64,000 nt of DNA, from IMG/VR virus record IMGVR_UViG_3300031555_001469; one strand, 5' to 3'. A program made the position numbers and the translations under genes. The notes below the pieces were generated by a model. The model ran no database searches. It saw only the letters and a program-made list of their open reading frames with translations, and was not told where the DNA came from. This DNA comes from a virus (Duplodnaviria; Caudoviricetes). Below are positions 3,858-63,953 of the stretch, in pieces. Numbering within the stretch: the stretch's first letter is position 1; each line of letters starts with the position of its first letter.

Positions 3858-4232
3858 TTAATACTTACTCTCATTCTGATCAGATAATACGTTACTATAG
3901 TATTTCTGAATCTTAGCAGCTCTTTCGGAATCGAATTCCTTACCTCCGATGCCATTAATAGCTGTCATTGTAGATGCAGTTTCGTCAACTGGGATGAAGT
4001 ATGAGATACTTCTGATATCCTCATATCCGAAACTAATTGCTTCGATTTCTCTCTGCTTCTGAAAAGCAGGTTCTGCAGTAGGTCTAATTACATGTACCAT
4101 CTGTAATTCATCGTTCCATGTAATTACATCTGTTAGAGAATTGACAATCTGGTTATTGTCAAAGAATAACTTAAAAGGACGACTGTCCTTCTTCAATGCA
4201 TCTCTCAATGCAATCACGCTTTCTCCTAACAT
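3858..4232 (-). CDS. Hypothetical protein
   Basis: ORF; start moved to the ATG at 4232 behind AGGAGGG. Confidence 0.75.
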   Translation of the reverse strand: MLGESVIALRDALKKDSRPFKLFFDNNQIVNSLTDVITWNDELQMVHVIRPTAEPAFQKQREIEAISFGYEDIRSISYFIPVDETASTMTAINGIGGKEFDSERAAKIQKYYSNVLSDQNESKY

Positions 4233-4557
4233 TTTTCTTTCCCTCCTTTTTAGCATAAATATAATCTACATACTTCCAATAGTATTTAGGAAGGTTGTAG
4301 ACTGTTGTACCAACATTATCATCTTTCGCAATAATAAGTACATACTTCTGATAGATTATGGTATAATATCCTTCTCTGGACACCTTCTCCATATAATCTC
4401 TCAATTGTTTGTTAGTGACATCTTCACATCTGATGCCTTTTTCAATAGCTTTCTCAAGAAACTTATCCTGAGAGCCATGTTTGATATTGGCTCTCTTGGT
4501 AAGTCTCTTGGTCATATGATCAGACCGTTTAATTTTTACATTACTATCCAAAGGCAT
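4171..4557 (-). CDS. Hypothetical basic protein
   Basis: ORF fills the gap in the operon; overlaps the downstream gene. Confidence 0.65.
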   Translation of the reverse strand: MPLDSNVKIKRSDHMTKRLTKRANIKHGSQDKFLEKAIEKGIRCEDVTNKQLRDYMEKVSREGYYTIIYQKYVLIIAKDDNVGTTVYNLPKYYWKYVDYIYAKKEGKKNVRRKRDCIERCIEEGQSSF

Positions 4558-4567
4558 TACTTGACTA

Positions 4568-5047
4568 CTACAGGTTATACTTTAAGCGATTCTGATTAAT
4601 CTGAGCTGTAGCCACATTCAGAAATTCAAGATCGCCAGAGTGTATAGCCGATGTAATTGCAGTCATAATAATGTTATAAGCCTGTAAAGTTGCCTGATCA
4701 TTCATAAGATTTTCCTGAATTAAAGTTGGAGCAATTCCATACTCAGGATGCTTTAATAATTCTTCCTCACCCTTAGATCTAACGAATGCCTGGTTGAGCT
4801 TTGTCTGACAAGCGATAACTGCATTGTTAGCGAAATGAGGATTCAAGAATACCTGACCTTCATATGTGATATCGAAATTACCCATTGCGATATCTCTGAA
4901 AGATCTAATAGCATCTTTCTGCATATCCAGTGGAGTTCTCTGGTTAATATATAACTCAATATCTCCCTGGAAGTTCTTTGCGATGGTGTCTTTAAGATTA
5001 GATGGTCTCTGTTTCTTATTAGCACCGCCGGTTTGTTTCTTAGCCAT
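4568..5047 (-). CDS. Hypothetical protein
   Basis: ORF; start moved to the ATG at 5047 behind AAGGAGG. Confidence 0.8.
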   Translation of the reverse strand: MAKKQTGGANKKQRPSNLKDTIAKNFQGDIELYINQRTPLDMQKDAIRSFRDIAMGNFDITYEGQVFLNPHFANNAVIACQTKLNQAFVRSKGEEELLKHPEYGIAPTLIQENLMNDQATLQAYNIIMTAITSAIHSGDLEFLNVATAQINQNRLKYNL

Positions 5048-55945: not shown

Positions 55946-56728
55946 TTACTTCTCAACTATTCTAATCGGCTTAATTACGATAGAATTAGGTTGATAATCA
56001 TCCATTTGTCTGTTAGCATTTCTAATCTCTTCTAATCTACCTTTAAGAAGATTAGCTACATACTCTGCTGATGGTAATTCATATGCACCTGTTAAATCGG
56101 TGTATATGTAATTCTTTTCGAGTAATTCCATACCCTTAGATTCTTCATAAGTCTCTGTAGCGGACTCGATTCTTTCTAAGATATCAAGCTGTTCTGGAGA
56201 GAAGAAATCTTTGTATGCTTCTACAAAGTTCTTATAAGCACCATATACTTTAGTAGTAGGTACGAATAAGTACATATTGTGTACAAGCTCATGTACTGTT
56301 TCTGCCAAAGGGATTAATCCAACCCAACAGTTGTAGTGGATCCACATTACTTCTTTGGCTACAGATTCTACATCTAATGGTTCTCTATAAGCTTTACGCT
56401 TATTGAATACTACTATAACCATATCGAATAAAGTTATAGGGTCATGATGTATATGAATCTTAATCTTGGTAGAATCTATATTAGTAATATTCTTATAGAA
56501 ACTACACTTATTCATATTAAAGTTTTCTCTTAAGAAAGCTACCATTTTTCTATACTCAAAAGAAGTTCTAATGTTTCTCTCAATATCTGCAAAGTATCTC
56601 TTAAGATCTTTTTCATCATTGAGATCATAGTCTACTATGTCGTATTCTGGTAACTCTGATATTTTTACGAGATTTATATCATTTCTTTCCACATAATCTA
56701 TAGTGATTATATTTCCTGGATCTCTCAT
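55946..56728 (-). CDS. HNH/His-Me-finger-like late protein, paralog of 46233-46895
   Basis: C...IHIHH..ITLFD...LIPL..TVHELVH; late promoter at 56742. Confidence 0.65.
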   Translation of the reverse strand: MRDPGNIITIDYVERNDINLVKISELPEYDIVDYDLNDEKDLKRYFADIERNIRTSFEYRKMVAFLRENFNMNKCSFYKNITNIDSTKIKIHIHHDPITLFDMVIVVFNKRKAYREPLDVESVAKEVMWIHYNCWVGLIPLAETVHELVHNMYLFVPTTKVYGAYKNFVEAYKDFFSPEQLDILERIESATETYEESKGMELLEKNYIYTDLTGAYELPSAEYVANLLKGRLEEIRNANRQMDDYQPNSIVIKPIRIVEK

Positions 56729-56786
56729 ATAAACACCTCCTTTATTAGTATGTGAAAAAATAAAAATGATTAAGCAAAAATTTAAA

Positions 56787-57400
56787 CCCAGTAAGAGATA
56801 ACTCTTACTGGGATTGTTTTAGGGGATCGGACTGGTTGCTTGGATTCAACCAGTCCTAAGCGTATGAATTTGGTTTTATAGTCAAATAACAATCTGCGCG
56901 ATTGATTGTTATTTTTGTGCTTGGGGTGTGTGGGAGCAGTTGGTGTGTGAACTACTCCCACGTCAATGTTTATAAATAACTAGCAAAAGCTAGATATCTA
57001 TCTATATATTTACTTGAATGTTGTGCTCTGGTTAAAAGCTAACCAGAGCACTATTTTTACTCCTATAATAGGAGATTGTTTCCCAGTCTAGGTAGGAGAC
57101 ACCCTAGACTAGATGGATTGGAAATATATGTTTCAAAATTGAGCTAACCAAGTGTTATTGGAATTTACGAATCATAGGAAAATAGATTAGCCCATCTTAT
57201 TATCTTGAGGAGAGGGCTGATTATTAAATCAGCCCGGGAAGTTATAACGACTAGTGCCTAGTTAGGCACTTAGATAATATCCTTTTTATTGGGCCACTGT
57301 ATCCCTACAGTAGCCCATCCACTAATAATGAATAAAGGAGATCTTCAACTATGATGTTGAAGTAGCGACACCAAGACAAGTCTCATCTTAATATCACTAT
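56787..57400 (-). ncRNA. Putative long multi-hairpin non-coding RNA (~610 nt) with an internal late promoter
   Basis: No ORF; about 12 stem-loops; early promoter at 57402-57410; late promoter at 57010-57022; terminal hairpin 56787-56812; two stems have C-A mismatches on plus that are G-U pairs on minus. Confidence 0.65.
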
Positions 57401-57460
57401 TATTATATATGGTTATAAAGGCTTTTAAAATAAAAAATAATAGGGGTGATTAAACTACCC

Positions 57461-57709
57461 CTATATTTCGTGAAACATTGGTTTATGACGCTCATCATAA
57501 AACAATGTCTCAGCATCAATTCCTTTAACAAATAGCTCTCTTTGAGACTCGTTATGCCAGTCTACAAGAAACTCATCTGTTTCAGTTTTAATTTTAGCTC
57601 TAGTTGTACCCTCTGCAATGTACAATCTGATCGCTACTATGTAGCCATGGGTTGTTGGGTTATAAACTTCTCCGCCAACGTTTTCATTTACACCTAATGA
57701 AATCATCAT
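57461..57709 (-). CDS. Hypothetical early protein
   Basis: Start moved to 57709 behind AAGGAGGT; early promoter at 57746. Confidence 0.75.
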   Translation of the reverse strand: MMISLGVNENVGGEVYNPTTHGYIVAIRLYIAEGTTRAKIKTETDEFLVDWHNESQRELFVKGIDAETLFYDERHKPMFHEI

Positions 57710-57812
57710 AATTAATACCTCCTTAGATATTATTATTTCATTATTATAATATATCATTAAGATTCTGAATTTGACATAAGTAAGAGGGTAGGTTTTACCC
57801 TACCCTTTAATA

Positions 57813-59117: not shown

Positions 59118-59197
59118 TTTATATTACCTCCTTCAAGTAATTAATAATAGGTTTAAAAGATAGTAATTTCCAATTAGTATAGAAATTGACATATGTG

Positions 59198-59352
59198 CTC
59201 CCGTATGATCCGGCTATCATACGGGAGTTTTTGAAAGGAAAAAATTATGAAAAAGTTTTATTTCTATATGTGTAACAAGCGAAAATACTATTAATGAAGA
59301 GAAATATTTTCTTAGCTTGGAGTTATGTAATAAGGGACACGCCCTTAGATTT
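59198..59352 (-). ncRNA. Putative ~155-nt late small RNA
   Basis: AACA-TTAAAA-TAA at 59351-59363; 5' hairpin TAAGGG/CCCTTA; 3' 12-bp hairpin 59198-59227; no sense ORF with an SD. Confidence 0.5.
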
Positions 59353-59403
59353 ATTTTAATGTTAAATAAAATTTTTTAATTTAGTTATTTATGATACGAT
59401 AAT

Positions 59404-59435
59404 AACTCCCGTAGTAAATAAATACTACGGGAGTT
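59404..59435 (-). terminator. Terminator after the RNAP beta gene
   Basis: AACTCCCGTAGTA/TACTACGGGAGTT 13-bp stem. Confidence 0.8.
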
Positions 59436-59441
59436 GTATTC

Positions 59442-62400
59442 TTATGGCTGTTCGTTGATTTCGAAATCATATGGTATTCCCATAATGTCTTTCACCGATC
59501 TATCTAATTCGATCATGATCTTATTCAAAGACCAAATACTCAATACAGAACCAACCATTCGTCCATTGATACTAGCTACAGACAAGAAAGCTTCAACTCT
59601 TTCTTCAGGTCTGAATTCGCTAGTAGGTTCTTTTCCTTCTGGGAAAATATCCTTAACTACGCCCTTAAGAGCACGGTCATAAACAAGTTTATCTCCAACA
59701 CCCATTTCATCTTCGTATTTCAGATAGAATTCAATGAGTACAGATTCTTTAGCATGTTTAAGTTTGCCAGTTGTATCAAGTTTATAGTTAGGAGTAAAGT
59801 TTTCTTCGGTATCATTATCACACTTATCTGCAATTCTTTTTACCTTAGAAATAGAAGATTCGTAATCTTTAACTACCTTCTTCAGGGAGTCTGATAATTC
59901 ATCTTCTTCTACAGTACGATATACTACTATATCCTGTACTATACCAGTTACTTTAGATTTAACTCTAACTCTTCCTAAATCACTTACGTCATCATCTTCA
60001 TCAGCAAGATTCTTCAAAAGTGCATTAAGATCGTCTTCGTCAAAAGCATTCTGGAATATCAATAATGGATCACCTTCCTGAACAGGCTGACCTTTCTTTA
60101 CAATAGATAAGATATTAGTGTTCTTAGGCAATGTGATCTCTTTCTTAACGACAATTTCTGATGTCATAGCTTTAGCTAACCATGGAGATATAATAGCAGA
60201 GTCTTCGTATCCTTCATCTGTACTGAGAACAGCAATCTTAGATAATACACCCATATTACACTGAGGATTTGCTTTTCTACCAACAGCTTTAGAAAATGAG
60301 AATTTATCATAAGCTATAATCTGACCAGGTTTAACTTTGTCACCAACTTTAAGATCTGTATCTAATTTGAGAACTCCATAGAAACCACCATCAGAGTTTT
60401 TCTTTACGTTCTCTCTTAAGTCTACAAATTCAGTTGTCTTATCTGTATAGGTGATAACCATATAATCTTCTGTAAGAGAGGTTACCTCACCTTTATCTTT
60501 AGCCTTATAAGCAAACATGTCAGAACACATGTATCCAATAGCTTCATCAGCACCATTAGTTACTAATAAAGGTGTAGATACTCTAGTTCTCATACTGTGC
60601 TTATTAGTCTGAATAAATGTCATAGCTGTACGGAATGGGTCATCTCGTGTTGTGCACATCGGAGTTAACGCTTCTGTAAAACATAAAGTATTTACATCGT
60701 TTATCTCTGGAGTTTCATCTGTCTTAAGATAACCACGTTTTCCTTCTACTGCCATATTAATTGTAGCCTGTCTAGTTAAACCTACATTACCAGCAAAACC
60801 AGTAGACATGGCTAATTTATTAAGCATAGATCTATCGAATGTACGTTTATCTAATCCATAGGATCTATCACTATTCATACCCGCTAATCCCTTGAAGGAA
60901 ACTGAATTAGCTGCTTCCATTTCAAGTAATGGGGAGAATACAGATAAATCACCAGCTGTTGGGTCAGACATAATGCTATCAATAATTTGAGTTCTCTTAA
61001 TAGACATAGTAGCGTCTTTCTTAGACCTCTTAAGCATATTAGAATACTGGCCGTAAGACGTAGCCAAAGATTTATAAATGTAACCAGTTATAATTTCTTT
61101 AGTTCTATATCTGTTACCAGTCAAGTCCACATGCTTATTATATTTATTATCAGCAAGAAGCATATTAGCATATGCTAAAACTTCTATATAATCGTATGGA
61201 AGATCAAAATCTTTACAAACTTCAATAGTTATAGGGTCCATCATCAAGTCATAGAAGTTATCAAGACCATCAGCCTTAATTCTTCCACCGAACTGATCAA
61301 GGAAATCTAACCACATAAGTTTAGAATTTACTTCCTTAATTGAATAAGCTTCAGTACCACATTCTTTTAATCCATTCATTAACAGAGATGAATTATAATC
61401 TAATTCGTATACCAAGTATCCGTCTTCGAATTTAATTACATCATGTGTATCTGGATTAATATGAGGACGTGCTTCAACTAATTCATATTTAACGTTACCC
61501 TTTTTCATAGCGGTAAATAAACCTTCACTGTAAGCCATAACTACAATAAGAGGTATTTCTGTATTAAGAATACTTGCCTTACTGTAAGTATACTTCTTAG
61601 CAGGTTTAATAGAATTATATACTTCTGCAAATTTAGGATCAGCCTTTGTTAAGATATCAGCTAACCAAGTAGAGAATGTCATAGGGCCATCCCAATAAAG
61701 AACTTTACCGTCCTGTATTGCAAATGGTAACCCCTTAGAATAATCTACATTGTGTGACTTTATCAACTCATCCTGATTGAAATATATAGTTAATTTCTGA
61801 CTAGGAACTGAAATCGTAGAGTATACTCCAGATATATCAATATAGTCAATCGGGAGATCATATTTTCTACAAATCTTTCTGTTATCACCAGCCTTTGTTT
61901 TAATAGAAGAACCTTCATATTTATCTAAAGCTTTTAAAAGTCTTCCTGCAGATGAATAAGATTTACCATCACTAGTACCAAATCTTCTAATAAAAATCTT
62001 ATTATAGTTTGATACAATCTGTACAGTATCTTCATCTGTCTTAATAATTGGAAGTAATGGTAACTGAGCAGAGATAGTCTTTTCGTTACCTCTTAATCTC
62101 ATGAATCTACCGTTACGGAATTTAGGTACATCGAATACTAAAGTAAATCTCTTACCATTAGCATCTTCACACTTTACTGTATAAGTATAGATAGAATCTT
62201 CTGTTGTAGAAGTATCTTTCTTATCTATATCTATTACAGATACAGGATTGGTTCTTGTTGAGAAGAAGTCTAATATCGCTACGATATCTTCATCATTCTC
62301 ATAAATATCATTAAAGTTAGTAAACTGCAATTTACTCCATTCGTCATTGATAGAATCGACAGGCAAAGAGGTTTCTGGTAACTCTCTATCTTCTTTACTT

Positions 62401-63953
62401 CTATCTAACAATTCCTTTACTGAAACTCCATCAAGTTTCTTCTTTGTAAAATCCTGATTGAGTTTAGTCATACGAGCTGCTCTTGTAGCAGACACCTGAC
62501 TCTTTTCTTCTTCCTCAGCTGCTAAGTCTAATAACAGCTTTTTGAACTCTTCGGTTTCAAGCTTATCAATAGCTTCTTCTGTAGAGTTAGAAGTTTCTGC
62601 AGCCTTATCAATCATATCGGAAATCTCTTTCTTCTTAGCTGCATTATTAGCTAACTTCTTTTCTAATTCTTCTTTAGATATAGTCTCATCCTTACCAGTG
62701 AGGTTATGTATCTTAATTCCCTGGGAAGTTTCCATTCTATCTAAAATATCTGTCTTGATTGCTTTAGGAGAATCCTTTGCAAGACTATCGTCCTGAATAG
62801 GTTCGCTAGCAATAAGCTTATCAATGAGCATCTTAAACTTGTTTCTACCAAATTCAGTCTTCTCATCAATAGTCATTTTAAAGTAACCAATCTTACCAAA
62901 GAAAACTATTGTATATCCTTTTAATCCTGCTCTTATCTTTGAAGGATTGTATACCATCAGATAATAAAGCATAGATATAGGATTAACAGTTTCTTTATAA
63001 TTGAATATATCACCAGTAGCAGGCTTATACTCATTTATATCTATGAAGATAGTTTTTCTTTCATAGTTTTCAAATCCTCTTGTATTAAGCAACTTCAATA
63101 AAAGGTCGAAATAGATTTCTGCACCTTTGACGTTCTTATAGAGGTTATTACGAAGAAATGCATCATTATAATATCTCATATCAATGAATACATTTCTATT
63201 CTGATATCTTTCTGGACGGATATAAGTATATCTAATCCAAGGATTCTTTTCTCTAACTGCATCGTAAATAGAAAAAAGTTCTTTATCGTTTCTAATACGA
63301 TCGTTAAAAAGAAGTTTCTTAAGTCTTGCATCATTATCAGAAGCTTCTGTAAAGAATATTACAGAGTCTTTAGTCTGAAAATAATTTTCATTTAATAAAT
63401 AAGATTCATTGGATAATACAGCAGGCTTAAAGCTATTCTGAACTACTTCATCAAACTTATCTACCCAGCTATATTCCCAATCAGGACAATATACTTTATG
63501 CATATTTGTCACTTCACCGTAAGAGAAATACTGTTCACTCTTAGAGTTCTCCAGTACAATCTTACCAATACATTTTAATGTAACAGGTTTCTGACACCAA
63601 ACTTCCTTACATAACTTAGCATAAGGAATCTGCTTAATACTAGGAGTCATAACTTTTACATCATGAGCAGGACAGTGTACGTAAAGTACAGTTCCTTTAT
63701 TAACGCCACGCATCTTTAACAGATTACCTTCAATAGATTCATGTAAGGATACTCTCTTATCAGTCGGGTCTTCATATGCAGCTTCTGTAATAAACGTAGA
63801 CGGAATTCTAGGAGTAAGTGTCTTCTTATTCATATTTTTAGTAGATAAGAAGAAATACTTATTCTCTCTATTTGATTCTGTAACTACCTTTTGCTGCTGA
63901 ATCATCCTAAGTATATTTCTCGATTCTTTATCGATAACATAGCCATCTTTCAT
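59442..63953 (-). CDS. Phage RNAP beta subunit, large N-terminal fragment (phiKZ gp178-like size, probably virion RNAP)
   Basis: GNVGL, RDDPFRTAM, GYEDSAIIS, GDKLVYDRALKGVV, INGRMVG; ends before the C-terminal beta motifs; long N-terminal extension. Confidence 0.9.
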   Translation of the reverse strand: MKDGYVIDKESRNILRMIQQQKVVTESNRENKYFFLSTKNMNKKTLTPRIPSTFITEAAYEDPTDKRVSLHESIEGNLLKMRGVNKGTVLYVHCPAHDVKVMTPSIKQIPYAKLCKEVWCQKPVTLKCIGKIVLENSKSEQYFSYGEVTNMHKVYCPDWEYSWVDKFDEVVQNSFKPAVLSNESYLLNENYFQTKDSVIFFTEASDNDARLKKLLFNDRIRNDKELFSIYDAVREKNPWIRYTYIRPERYQNRNVFIDMRYYNDAFLRNNLYKNVKGAEIYFDLLLKLLNTRGFENYERKTIFIDINEYKPATGDIFNYKETVNPISMLYYLMVYNPSKIRAGLKGYTIVFFGKIGYFKMTIDEKTEFGRNKFKMLIDKLIASEPIQDDSLAKDSPKAIKTDILDRMETSQGIKIHNLTGKDETISKEELEKKLANNAAKKKEISDMIDKAAETSNSTEEAIDKLETEEFKKLLLDLAAEEEEKSQVSATRAARMTKLNQDFTKKKLDGVSVKELLDRSKEDRELPETSLPVDSINDEWSKLQFTNFNDIYENDEDIVAILDFFSTRTNPVSVIDIDKKDTSTTEDSIYTYTVKCEDANGKRFTLVFDVPKFRNGRFMRLRGNEKTISAQLPLLPIIKTDEDTVQIVSNYNKIFIRRFGTSDGKSYSSAGRLLKALDKYEGSSIKTKAGDNRKICRKYDLPIDYIDISGVYSTISVPSQKLTIYFNQDELIKSHNVDYSKGLPFAIQDGKVLYWDGPMTFSTWLADILTKADPKFAEVYNSIKPAKKYTYSKASILNTEIPLIVVMAYSEGLFTAMKKGNVKYELVEARPHINPDTHDVIKFEDGYLVYELDYNSSLLMNGLKECGTEAYSIKEVNSKLMWLDFLDQFGGRIKADGLDNFYDLMMDPITIEVCKDFDLPYDYIEVLAYANMLLADNKYNKHVDLTGNRYRTKEIITGYIYKSLATSYGQYSNMLKRSKKDATMSIKRTQIIDSIMSDPTAGDLSVFSPLLEMEAANSVSFKGLAGMNSDRSYGLDKRTFDRSMLNKLAMSTGFAGNVGLTRQATINMAVEGKRGYLKTDETPEINDVNTLCFTEALTPMCTTRDDPFRTAMTFIQTNKHSMRTRVSTPLLVTNGADEAIGYMCSDMFAYKAKDKGEVTSLTEDYMVITYTDKTTEFVDLRENVKKNSDGGFYGVLKLDTDLKVGDKVKPGQIIAYDKFSFSKAVGRKANPQCNMGVLSKIAVLSTDEGYEDSAIISPWLAKAMTSEIVVKKEITLPKNTNILSIVKKGQPVQEGDPLLIFQNAFDEDDLNALLKNLADEDDDVSDLGRVRVKSKVTGIVQDIVVYRTVEEDELSDSLKKVVKDYESSISKVKRIADKCDNDTEENFTPNYKLDTTGKLKHAKESVLIEFYLKYEDEMGVGDKLVYDRALKGVVKDIFPEGKEPTSEFRPEERVEAFLSVASINGRMVGSVLSIWSLNKIMIELDRSVKDIMGIPYDFEINEQP

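Follow-up and report, generated by a model that had tools for sequence, protein, structure and literature searches.

Sponge RNAs such as CsrB and RsmZ function through multivalency, with a GGA motif for CsrA or RsmE in most of their loops. The GOLLD and ROOL RNAs have ornate multi-junction folds and usually lie beside tRNA genes, and the promoter-early stem-loop (PeSL) elements of T4-type phages are short repeated cassettes that flank small open reading frames (ORFs) and promote shuffling. Jumbo phages with RNA polymerases of their own are known mostly through their proteins, with few noncoding RNAs of assigned function. Here we describe a noncoding gap in a 64,000-nucleotide (nt) stretch of phage DNA (the window), which corresponds to bases 106598-170597 of the 229,764-bp IMG/VR record IMGVR_UViG_3300031555_001469 (estimated to be 93% complete). 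The gap, at positions 56729-57460 of the window, most likely encodes an RNA of ~620 bases that consists of a chain of hairpins (the array), the shape of which appears from locus comparison to be selected in relatives, and which falls into no known RNA family.

The genome is of the AR9-like giant (jumbo) type, has a G+C content of ~32%, and encodes a multisubunit RNA polymerase beta-like protein (59442-63953, minus strand), ThyX, and RNase H. For AR9, the published transcription study describes early promoters of the form AAATATATATTAT-N6-G(+1) and late promoters of the form AACA-N6-TA, with both present at genes that are expressed continuously (Lavysh et al. 2017, PMC5312081). In the window phage genome, 27 of the 35 copies of TATATTAT-N6-G (77%) and 63 of the 166 copies of AACA-N6-TA are situated in noncoding DNA, which makes up 7.6% of the genome. 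This enrichment of both AR9-type motifs indicates that the AR9 promoter grammar is in real use here.

RESULTS

A hairpin-dense noncoding gap with a selected structure

A first-pass annotation of the window had pointed to its largest noncoding gap as an ORF-free array of about 12 hairpins. The gap (732 nt) proved to be the largest noncoding stretch not only of the window but of the entire genome, with the highest hairpin density among the long gaps, and three other assemblies of the window phage retain the 732-nt spacing. No ORF of more than 65 codons is present in any frame, none opens when TGA, TAG, or TAA is recoded, and the 12 stems were recovered as listed (56787-812, 56829-856, 56884-914, 56930-961, 56980-993, 57023-051, 57060-074, 57085-110, 57214-235, 57253-270, 57290-317, and 57343-362). 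The fold energy of the gap, compared with dinucleotide shuffles, gave z scores of -14.7 and -12.9 on the minus strand (the sense strand of the array) and -7.1 and -7.2 on the plus strand. The corresponding gaps of relatives are all hairpin dense, with z scores of -8 to -12 on the sense strand and always weaker values on the antisense strand; their other long gaps gave z scores of -3 to +1.

Covariation was evaluated in three aligned blocks (A4, A5, and A6) of 3-4 sequences each. Both sides of the pair had changed in 6 of 27, 5 of 22, and 12 of 33 pairs, respectively (23 pairs), and standard pairs were formed in 91-97% of the cells, compared with 30-53% when the partner was slid by 1-3 columns. 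Only 0 or 1 of 500 shuffles matched the observed covariation score. One stem, for example, reads AGUCUAGG/CCUAGACU in the window, AGCCUAAG/CUUAGGCU in relative L013, and AGCCCAAG/CUUGGGCU in relative L039. The hairpins, for which covariation had been proposed as a check, thus covary beyond shuffles, and within these blocks of 3-4 sequences pairs are kept through two-sided changes beyond both the shuffled and the slid controls, as is expected of structured RNA in general. What these alignments show to be preserved by selection is the hairpins and their positions, not their sequences.

In a strand-neutral scan of 60 hairpins from 7 arrays, G.T mismatches within stems numbered 24 and A.C mismatches 2 (binomial p ~1e-5), and the C-A mismatches noted earlier on the plus strand of the window are indeed G-U pairs on the minus strand. 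The excess of G.T over A.C indicates that the selected structure is that of one strand, of minus-strand sense, and the simplest reading of a single-strand structure is RNA. A role at the level of DNA would take the form of an R-loop or primer-RNA origin of the ColE1 RNA II or T4 oriF/oriG kind, a single-strand initiation site, or a recombination or insulator region. It would account for a promoter-driven, structured noncoding stretch of ~0.6 kb amid genes of nucleotide metabolism and replication, with RNase H nearby, and some of the array hairpins would terminate transcription in both directions. However, the wobble asymmetry between strands argues against a double-stranded cruciform function, the cumulative GC skew shows no inflection at 163-164 kb and follows the orientation of the genes, and the window array contains no iterons or direct repeats beyond an 8-mer. 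One relative also lacks the array, which elsewhere is anywhere from 732 to 1085 nt long. Phage replication origins need not show GC skew; we nevertheless regard a DNA-level element as very unlikely, and the replication origin that had been offered as a minor option in the first-pass annotation is not borne out by either the skew or the distribution of the array.

None of the families in Rfam 15 (including GOLLD, ROOL, 6S, tmRNA, and group I and II introns) matched the window or the loci of five relatives at gathering score, in agreement with the suggestion that the RNA is novel. At E values of up to 10, the region 56600-57600 gave only chance-level matches to snoRNAs, miRNAs, and sRNAs, at 15-22 bits against thresholds of 40-100. 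The literature on phage hairpin-array RNAs was also searched, and nothing relevant was found. Every hairpin is unique, with no second copy elsewhere in the genome. Several types of repeated element were considered and set aside. Multi-copy mobile hairpins were rejected on account of this uniqueness, a CRISPR array or RNA anti-CRISPR because there is also no direct-repeat family beyond an 8-mer, and a retron noncoding RNA (ncRNA) array because the 93%-complete genome has no RVT_1 (PF00078) match and the window array has no repeated unit.

Conservation, modularity, and loss of the array

A hairpin chain occupies the corresponding locus in seven relatives, and four of these chains are complete (795-1085 nt). 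The gap upstream of the gene for the adjacent 260-aa protein is 824 nt in L013, 795 nt in L039, 1085 nt in L040, and 897 and 898 nt in L014 and L041, respectively; the contigs of L015 and L042 end within the gap, and L044 and L045 hold only the 5' part of the array. (L015:1-19 is a Nextera transposase adapter [GATGTGTATAAGAGACAG], so the first bases of L015 are not phage DNA.) At the loci with complete arrays, identity to the window is 73-84% for ThyX, 83-87% for RNase H, and 85-97% for the 260-aa protein, a divergence at which unconstrained DNA should be scrambled. Sequence conservation is seen in the 5' module (from the promoter to a 22-nt box), several short linkers, the terminator, and the promoter and Shine-Dalgarno (SD) sequence of the next gene, and the 5' module is 88% identical to that of L013 over 116 nt. 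The chain itself (57317-56829) comprises nine or ten independent hairpins, approximately, with short and partly conserved linkers, and its stems are 8-13 bp long and roughly half G+C, compared with 32% for the genome.

The relatives differ in the units that they carry. L040 has three diverged copies of a 115-120-nt unit, each with an AT-rich basal stem and a different G+C-rich tip, the terminator is duplicated in L013, a second early promoter lies within the array in L014/L041 and in L045, and L039 lacks one hairpin that is common to the window and L040. Comparison of the loci thereby shows hairpin number to vary by tandem duplication and deletion. The array can also be missing altogether. On the contig that carries P0002 (260-aa protein 91% identical), ~76 nt separate the small ORF from the 260-aa gene, as judged from gene layout only; L019 (73% identical) has just two terminator hairpins at the array position; IMG/VR relatives with 260-aa proteins that are 43-54% identical have no gap at the locus; and the position is occupied by an unrelated 140-aa ORF in L003-L005. 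That ORF has no similarity to the gap and no frame of the gap opens on stop recoding, and a decayed gene was rejected on these grounds.

The interval between ThyX and the 260-aa gene is plastic: L003-L005 have other small ORFs there, L040 and L014 have an additional one, and some relatives are array-less. Such plasticity would be expected if the gap had no function of its own and had simply accumulated terminator hairpins and the debris of small early genes since lost, as a hyperplastic region akin to the PeSL-rich regions of T4-type phages. On the other hand, no relative has an ORF in the array, a dedicated and conserved promoter and 5' module precede it, and only the last hairpin is followed by a U-run on the sense strand. 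Moreover, across lineages with proteins of only ~75-85% identity the hairpins covary and stay in position, and neutral DNA would lose perfect stems of 10-13 bp at that distance, which argues against an absence of function. We consider such an absence quite improbable.

DNA searches with the region, for near and distant matches, against 50,697 phage records gave no match, and a covariance model of the 5' module gave only weak matches (E values of at least 0.02) in the records of four distant relatives, the match in G003 lying inside the homologue of the 260-aa gene. The weakness of these matches suggests that the element is confined to a narrow clade. A pattern scan of viral and metagenome contigs with the 21-mer of the array promoter likewise recovered only chance matches, in coding DNA or unrelated contigs.

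Predicted transcription signals

The signals that had been assigned to the two ends and the interior of the gap are all present on the minus strand. The array promoter is CATATATAAT-AATAGT-G, its core differing from the canonical TATATTAT by one A-for-T change, a variant that recurs identically in the arrays of five relatives. The promoter 21-mer is identical in L013, L039, L040, and L014 (two copies in L014), and together with the hairpin at +1, hairpin B, and the box it is conserved in L013, L039, L040, L014, and L044. The +1 hairpin is conserved in 4 relatives, with exchanges between UA and UG and between GC and GU only. A sigma-A/sigma-70-like sequence, TTTAAA-16-TATAAT (57402-57429, minus strand; 10/12 matches), overlaps the AR9-type early promoter, which raises the possibility that host RNA polymerase might start here too. 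The internal late promoter motif is conserved as AACATT(A/C)AAGTAA in the window, L039, and L040 but not in L013.

At the other end, the terminator hairpin directly precedes UUUAAAUUUU / UUUAAAUUUUU, as in an intrinsic (Rho-independent) terminator. It is conserved in L013 (two copies), L014, L015, L039, and L040, and two-sided changes affect 4 of its 12 pairs. A minus-strand ncRNA running from the early promoter to the terminal hairpin, as the first-pass annotation had envisaged, is consistent with the conservation of the promoter, +1 hairpin, and terminator, with the covariation and wobble asymmetry, and with the lack of an Rfam family. The predicted early RNA would be ~618 nt long (57395 to ~56778), and a late RNA from the internal motif would be ~234 nt. 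The coordinates of the predicted features are given in Table 1.

Table 1. Predicted features of the array locus, ordered along the minus strand
Feature	Coordinates	Strand	Details
Small early ORF, 81 aa	57461-57706 (longest-ORF call to 57757)	Minus	SD AAGGAGG 7 nt before ATG at 57706
Terminator of small upstream ORF	57425-57464 (hairpin 57440-57464 + U-run)	Minus	Inverted repeat, fold
Early promoter, AR9-type (virion RNA polymerase)	57395-57409	Minus	TATATAAT-N6-G; predicted transcription start site (TSS) G at 57395
5'-terminal hairpin from +1	57367-57395	Minus	Rich in G.U pairs; absent from the first-pass list
Hairpin B	57343-57362	Minus	CUUCAAC/GUUGAAG; kept in L013, L039, L040, L014, L044
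Invariant 22-nt box	57325-57346	Minus	GAAGAUCUCCUUUAUUCAUUAU; anti-SD-like core CUCCUUU
Hairpin chain, upstream part	57290-57317, 57253-57270, 57214-57235, 57083-57112, 57060-57074	Minus	Independent hairpins
Hairpin chain, downstream part	57023-57051, 56972-57001, 56930-56961, 56884-56914, 56829-56856	Minus	Independent hairpins
Internal late promoter motif, AACA-N6-TA	57011-57022	Minus	AACATTCAAGTA, ending at 57011
Intrinsic terminator	56776-56812	Minus	Hairpin 56812-56787, 11 pairs, 6 G-C; then U-run
Late-type promoter, SD, and ATG of 260-aa gene	56728-56754	Minus	CACA-N6-TA ending at 56743
260-aa gene (phrog_12252)	55946-56728	Minus	Left neighbor of array

The conserved box and its possible targets

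The box is identical in the window, L013, L039, and L040, and its core is kept in L014 and L044. Anti-SD-like tracts had been reported throughout the minus-strand linkers and loops. The tracts do exist, but with the exception of the invariant box (57346-57325) they are neither enriched nor conserved in relatives; counts of CTCC and GGAG are 5 and 3 in the window and 5 and 8 in L013. Duplexes between the box and the ribosome binding site (RBS) of the 260-aa gene have predicted energies of -14 to -17 kcal/mol in the close group and -8.3 kcal/mol in the L014 type, whereas other RBSs of the genome pair with the box at -19 to -21 kcal/mol. The best non-self site (-23.7 kcal/mol) lies within a coding gene, the RBS matches are generic, and genome-wide no specific target of the box stands out beyond generic SD complementarity. 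A scan for the box gave 0 matches in viral contigs and 7 in genome contigs, all inside one 999-aa Flavobacterium gene and therefore attributable to chance.

These results bear on two regulatory readings. In the first, the array would be a cis-acting leader or attenuator, with the early promoter serving the operon of the 260-aa gene through a 650-nt regulatory 5' untranslated region that acts by attenuation or antitermination; in detail, the anti-SD box at the 5' end would close on the SD of the 260-aa gene and silence the gene early. In the minimum-free-energy fold of the window locus, the box is indeed base paired to the SD region that lies 600 nt further downstream, and the continuously expressed AR9 genes, as described in PMC5312081, provide a precedent for a gene with early and late promoters. 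However, a strong conserved terminator lies between the early promoter and the 260-aa gene, the box pairs less well with this RBS than with others of the genome, and one relative does without the array. In addition, the 260-aa gene has a late-type promoter of its own. The motif NACA-N6-TA is found immediately 5' of its SD in the window, L013, L014, L015, L018, and L019, leaving a leader of only ~15 nt; in most lineages the motif begins with C or G, and in L018 with A. In AR9, the homologous gene g242 is strictly late, with a mapped late TSS and expression values of 0, 55, and 752 at 5, 20, and 40 min according to the AR9 transcriptome supplement. Taken together, the separate late-type motif, the late expression of g242, the intervening terminator, and the weak box-SD duplexes suggest that the array is probably not the leader of the 260-aa gene, which is probably a separate late unit outside the RNA, and we judge a cis leader unlikely.

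In the second, the RNA would be a trans-acting riboregulator, in which the box, resembling the 3' tail of 16S rRNA (CUCCUUU), pairs with the SD sequences of host or phage mRNAs and the hairpins only stabilize the molecule. No other element of the locus is as conserved as the box, which is unchanged among four relatives with ThyX proteins that are ~83% identical and which is predicted to be unpaired or weakly paired in local folds. Against this, the genome offers no outstanding target and even the best duplexes with RBSs are generic, enrichment and conservation are both lacking in the other anti-SD-like tracts, and an AAUGAA sequence just past the next hairpin is available to pair with the 3' half of the box in three relatives. 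Ten selected hairpins also far exceed what stability would require, and such an RNA would strike the strong SD sequences of the phage itself. A riboregulator thus has a low probability in our estimation. The related proposal of a polycistronic precursor of antisense sRNAs directed at RBSs is not supported, as a single box is conserved and its pairing is no better than generic SD complementarity; the prediction of targets among the RBSs of the genome yielded generic duplexes only.

The small protein encoded upstream

The small ORF is preceded by an early promoter of its own, of the canonical form TATATTAT-N6-G and with its TSS at 57739. Homologues with 45-63% identity immediately precede the array at each of the 7 other loci that bear one (8/8 loci including the window), and their lower identity relative to that of the neighboring proteins (73-97%) indicates faster evolution. 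A word-index protein search with the small ORF returned only itself, the homologues having surfaced only by direct comparison of the loci, and no Pfam or PHROG family matched. The AF2 model (pLDDT 73) has as its best Foldseek match a small chain of eukaryotic large ribosomal subunits (E value of 0.03, TM 0.45), and the best VIA Z was 4.3; these fold matches are too weak to be used. A profile of the protein recovered 68 remote, unannotated relatives, and its multi-repeat matches were discarded as ankyrin and BACON artifacts. The small protein is a possible partner of the RNA.

In the relatives with the longest arrays, and only in these, the first small ORF is separated from the array by another, of 90-95 aa and with 52-54% identity across lineages (L040:1628-1915, L014:2548-2820, and L041:1830-2102).

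Neighboring genes and other structured spacers

The genes neighboring the array are those for ThyX, the small ORF, the 260-aa phrog_12252 protein, and RNase H, the last being three genes downstream of the array. Homologues of the 260-aa protein are found in Bacillus phages AR9 (g242, 33% identity) and PBS1, Staphylococcus jumbo phages, Listeria phage LPJP1, and Yersinia phage phiR1-37; a search of species genomes with this protein, performed to find the host, gave no match. ARAGORN detected no tRNA in the window or in 8 related loci. The only two tRNA genes of the genome (Met and a long Cys call; C1:68337-68412 and 90130-90229) are located in two other large noncoding gaps outside the window. 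The spacer between the RNA polymerase beta-like gene and ThyX (59118-59441 in the window; L014:650-936) is strongly structured in the relative, with a sense-strand z score of -10.6.

DISCUSSION

Our results point to a functional structured RNA of the minus strand, to which we assign a probability of roughly 0.8. In the explanation that we favor, transcription would start at the AR9-type early promoter and yield an RNA with a protective hairpin at +1, followed by the invariant 22-nt box and a beads-on-a-string chain of ~10 independently folding hairpins, and would end at the conserved intrinsic terminator, which closely precedes the 260-aa gene with its separate (late) promoter. Acting in trans at an early stage of infection, the RNA would be a stable, multivalent scaffold or decoy made of hairpins and would bind many copies of an RNA-binding protein. 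This protein might be a host factor of RNA decay or defense, or else the early 81-aa product, itself fast evolving, of the ORF immediately upstream. For the full explanation, an ncRNA gene together with its mechanism, the odds are somewhat short of even, and the trans-acting multivalent binding or decoy mechanism in particular is proposed tentatively, at slightly lower odds. A bolder version is that the hairpin RNA and the 81-aa protein constitute a previously undescribed early phage ribonucleoprotein or decoy system that soaks up or redirects a host RNA-binding factor, such as an RNA-decay enzyme or an RNA-sensing defense protein. Such a system would require many generic hairpins, the sequences of which could drift freely while their number was tuned by duplication and deletion; in this specific form we regard the proposal as speculative and doubtful.

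Several observations weigh against the favored explanation. The core of the array promoter is off by one base, and the AR9 virion RNA polymerase is reported to be sensitive to some single changes (PMC5312081). Discrete early transcription is read from motifs only. The covariation comes from 3-4 sequences per block, and unrelated palindromes aligned at one site would mimic compensation, in which case a hairpin would still be shown to be kept there, but not how. Hairpins of single-stranded DNA also tolerate G.T wobble, so that the asymmetry establishes the polarity of the sense strand and not strictly RNA. No conserved loop or stem motif marks a common protein-binding site, and the model of the small protein displays no recognizable RNA-binding fold. 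Finally, if the 77-aa ORF of the array-less relative is a homologue of the small protein, the protein can exist without the array.

The locus is a clean candidate for an early RNA driven by the virion polymerase, in which the selected feature is the hairpin chain and not its sequence. The array comes and goes between co-circulating relatives, as is typical of accessory genes for host takeover or counter-defense. Should the RNA prove real and a host or phage protein prove to bind it, the early program of AR9-like phages would gain an RNA-based tool, and the array would be a natural multivalent hairpin scaffold with an evolving copy number. Even if the array is only a leader or insulator, it illustrates the way in which these genomes keep early and late units apart.

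Comparison with known systems indicates both likenesses and differences. The early units of AR9 follow the same early and late promoter grammar as the array locus (Lavysh et al. 2017, PMC5312081), but AR9 has no such array upstream of g242, and no mention of "noncoding" or "hairpin" was found in the main text of that paper. A 560-nt gap after g242 in AR9 (L038, KU878088; positions 4095-4654) folds with a z score of -6.4 and contains no gene in the feature table of the record. According to the AR9 transcriptome supplement, this gap holds a tRNA-Asn that is driven by a late promoter and very highly expressed; the gap was rejected as a homologue of the array.

As in ColE1 RNA II and the T4 oriF-oriG primers, the array corresponds to a promoter-driven, structured noncoding transcript of ~0.55 kb with RNase H encoded nearby, but it shows no skew inflection and no G-rich R-loop-forming tract, its RNA linkers being C rich rather than G rich, and it is dispensable in one relative. 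With the PeSL cassettes it shares an early promoter, stem-loop modules, and a plastic region that differs between close relatives; unlike them, it contains no ORFs and no sequence repeated in the genome, and its hairpins are predicted to form one transcript. GOLLD and ROOL are likewise noncoding RNAs of 0.6-0.8 kb from phages and prophages of Firmicutes-type hosts, with no assigned function, whereas the array has no tRNA nearby and no Rfam match and is a linear chain of simple hairpins. The CsrB and RsmZ sponge RNAs resemble the array in having a variable number of consecutive stem-loops that differs between relatives. In the array, however, GGA is not repeated in the loops (its counts are no higher than those of TCC) and no loop motif is shared across hairpins or relatives, and the RNA, unlike CsrB and RsmZ, is phage encoded and, by prediction, early.

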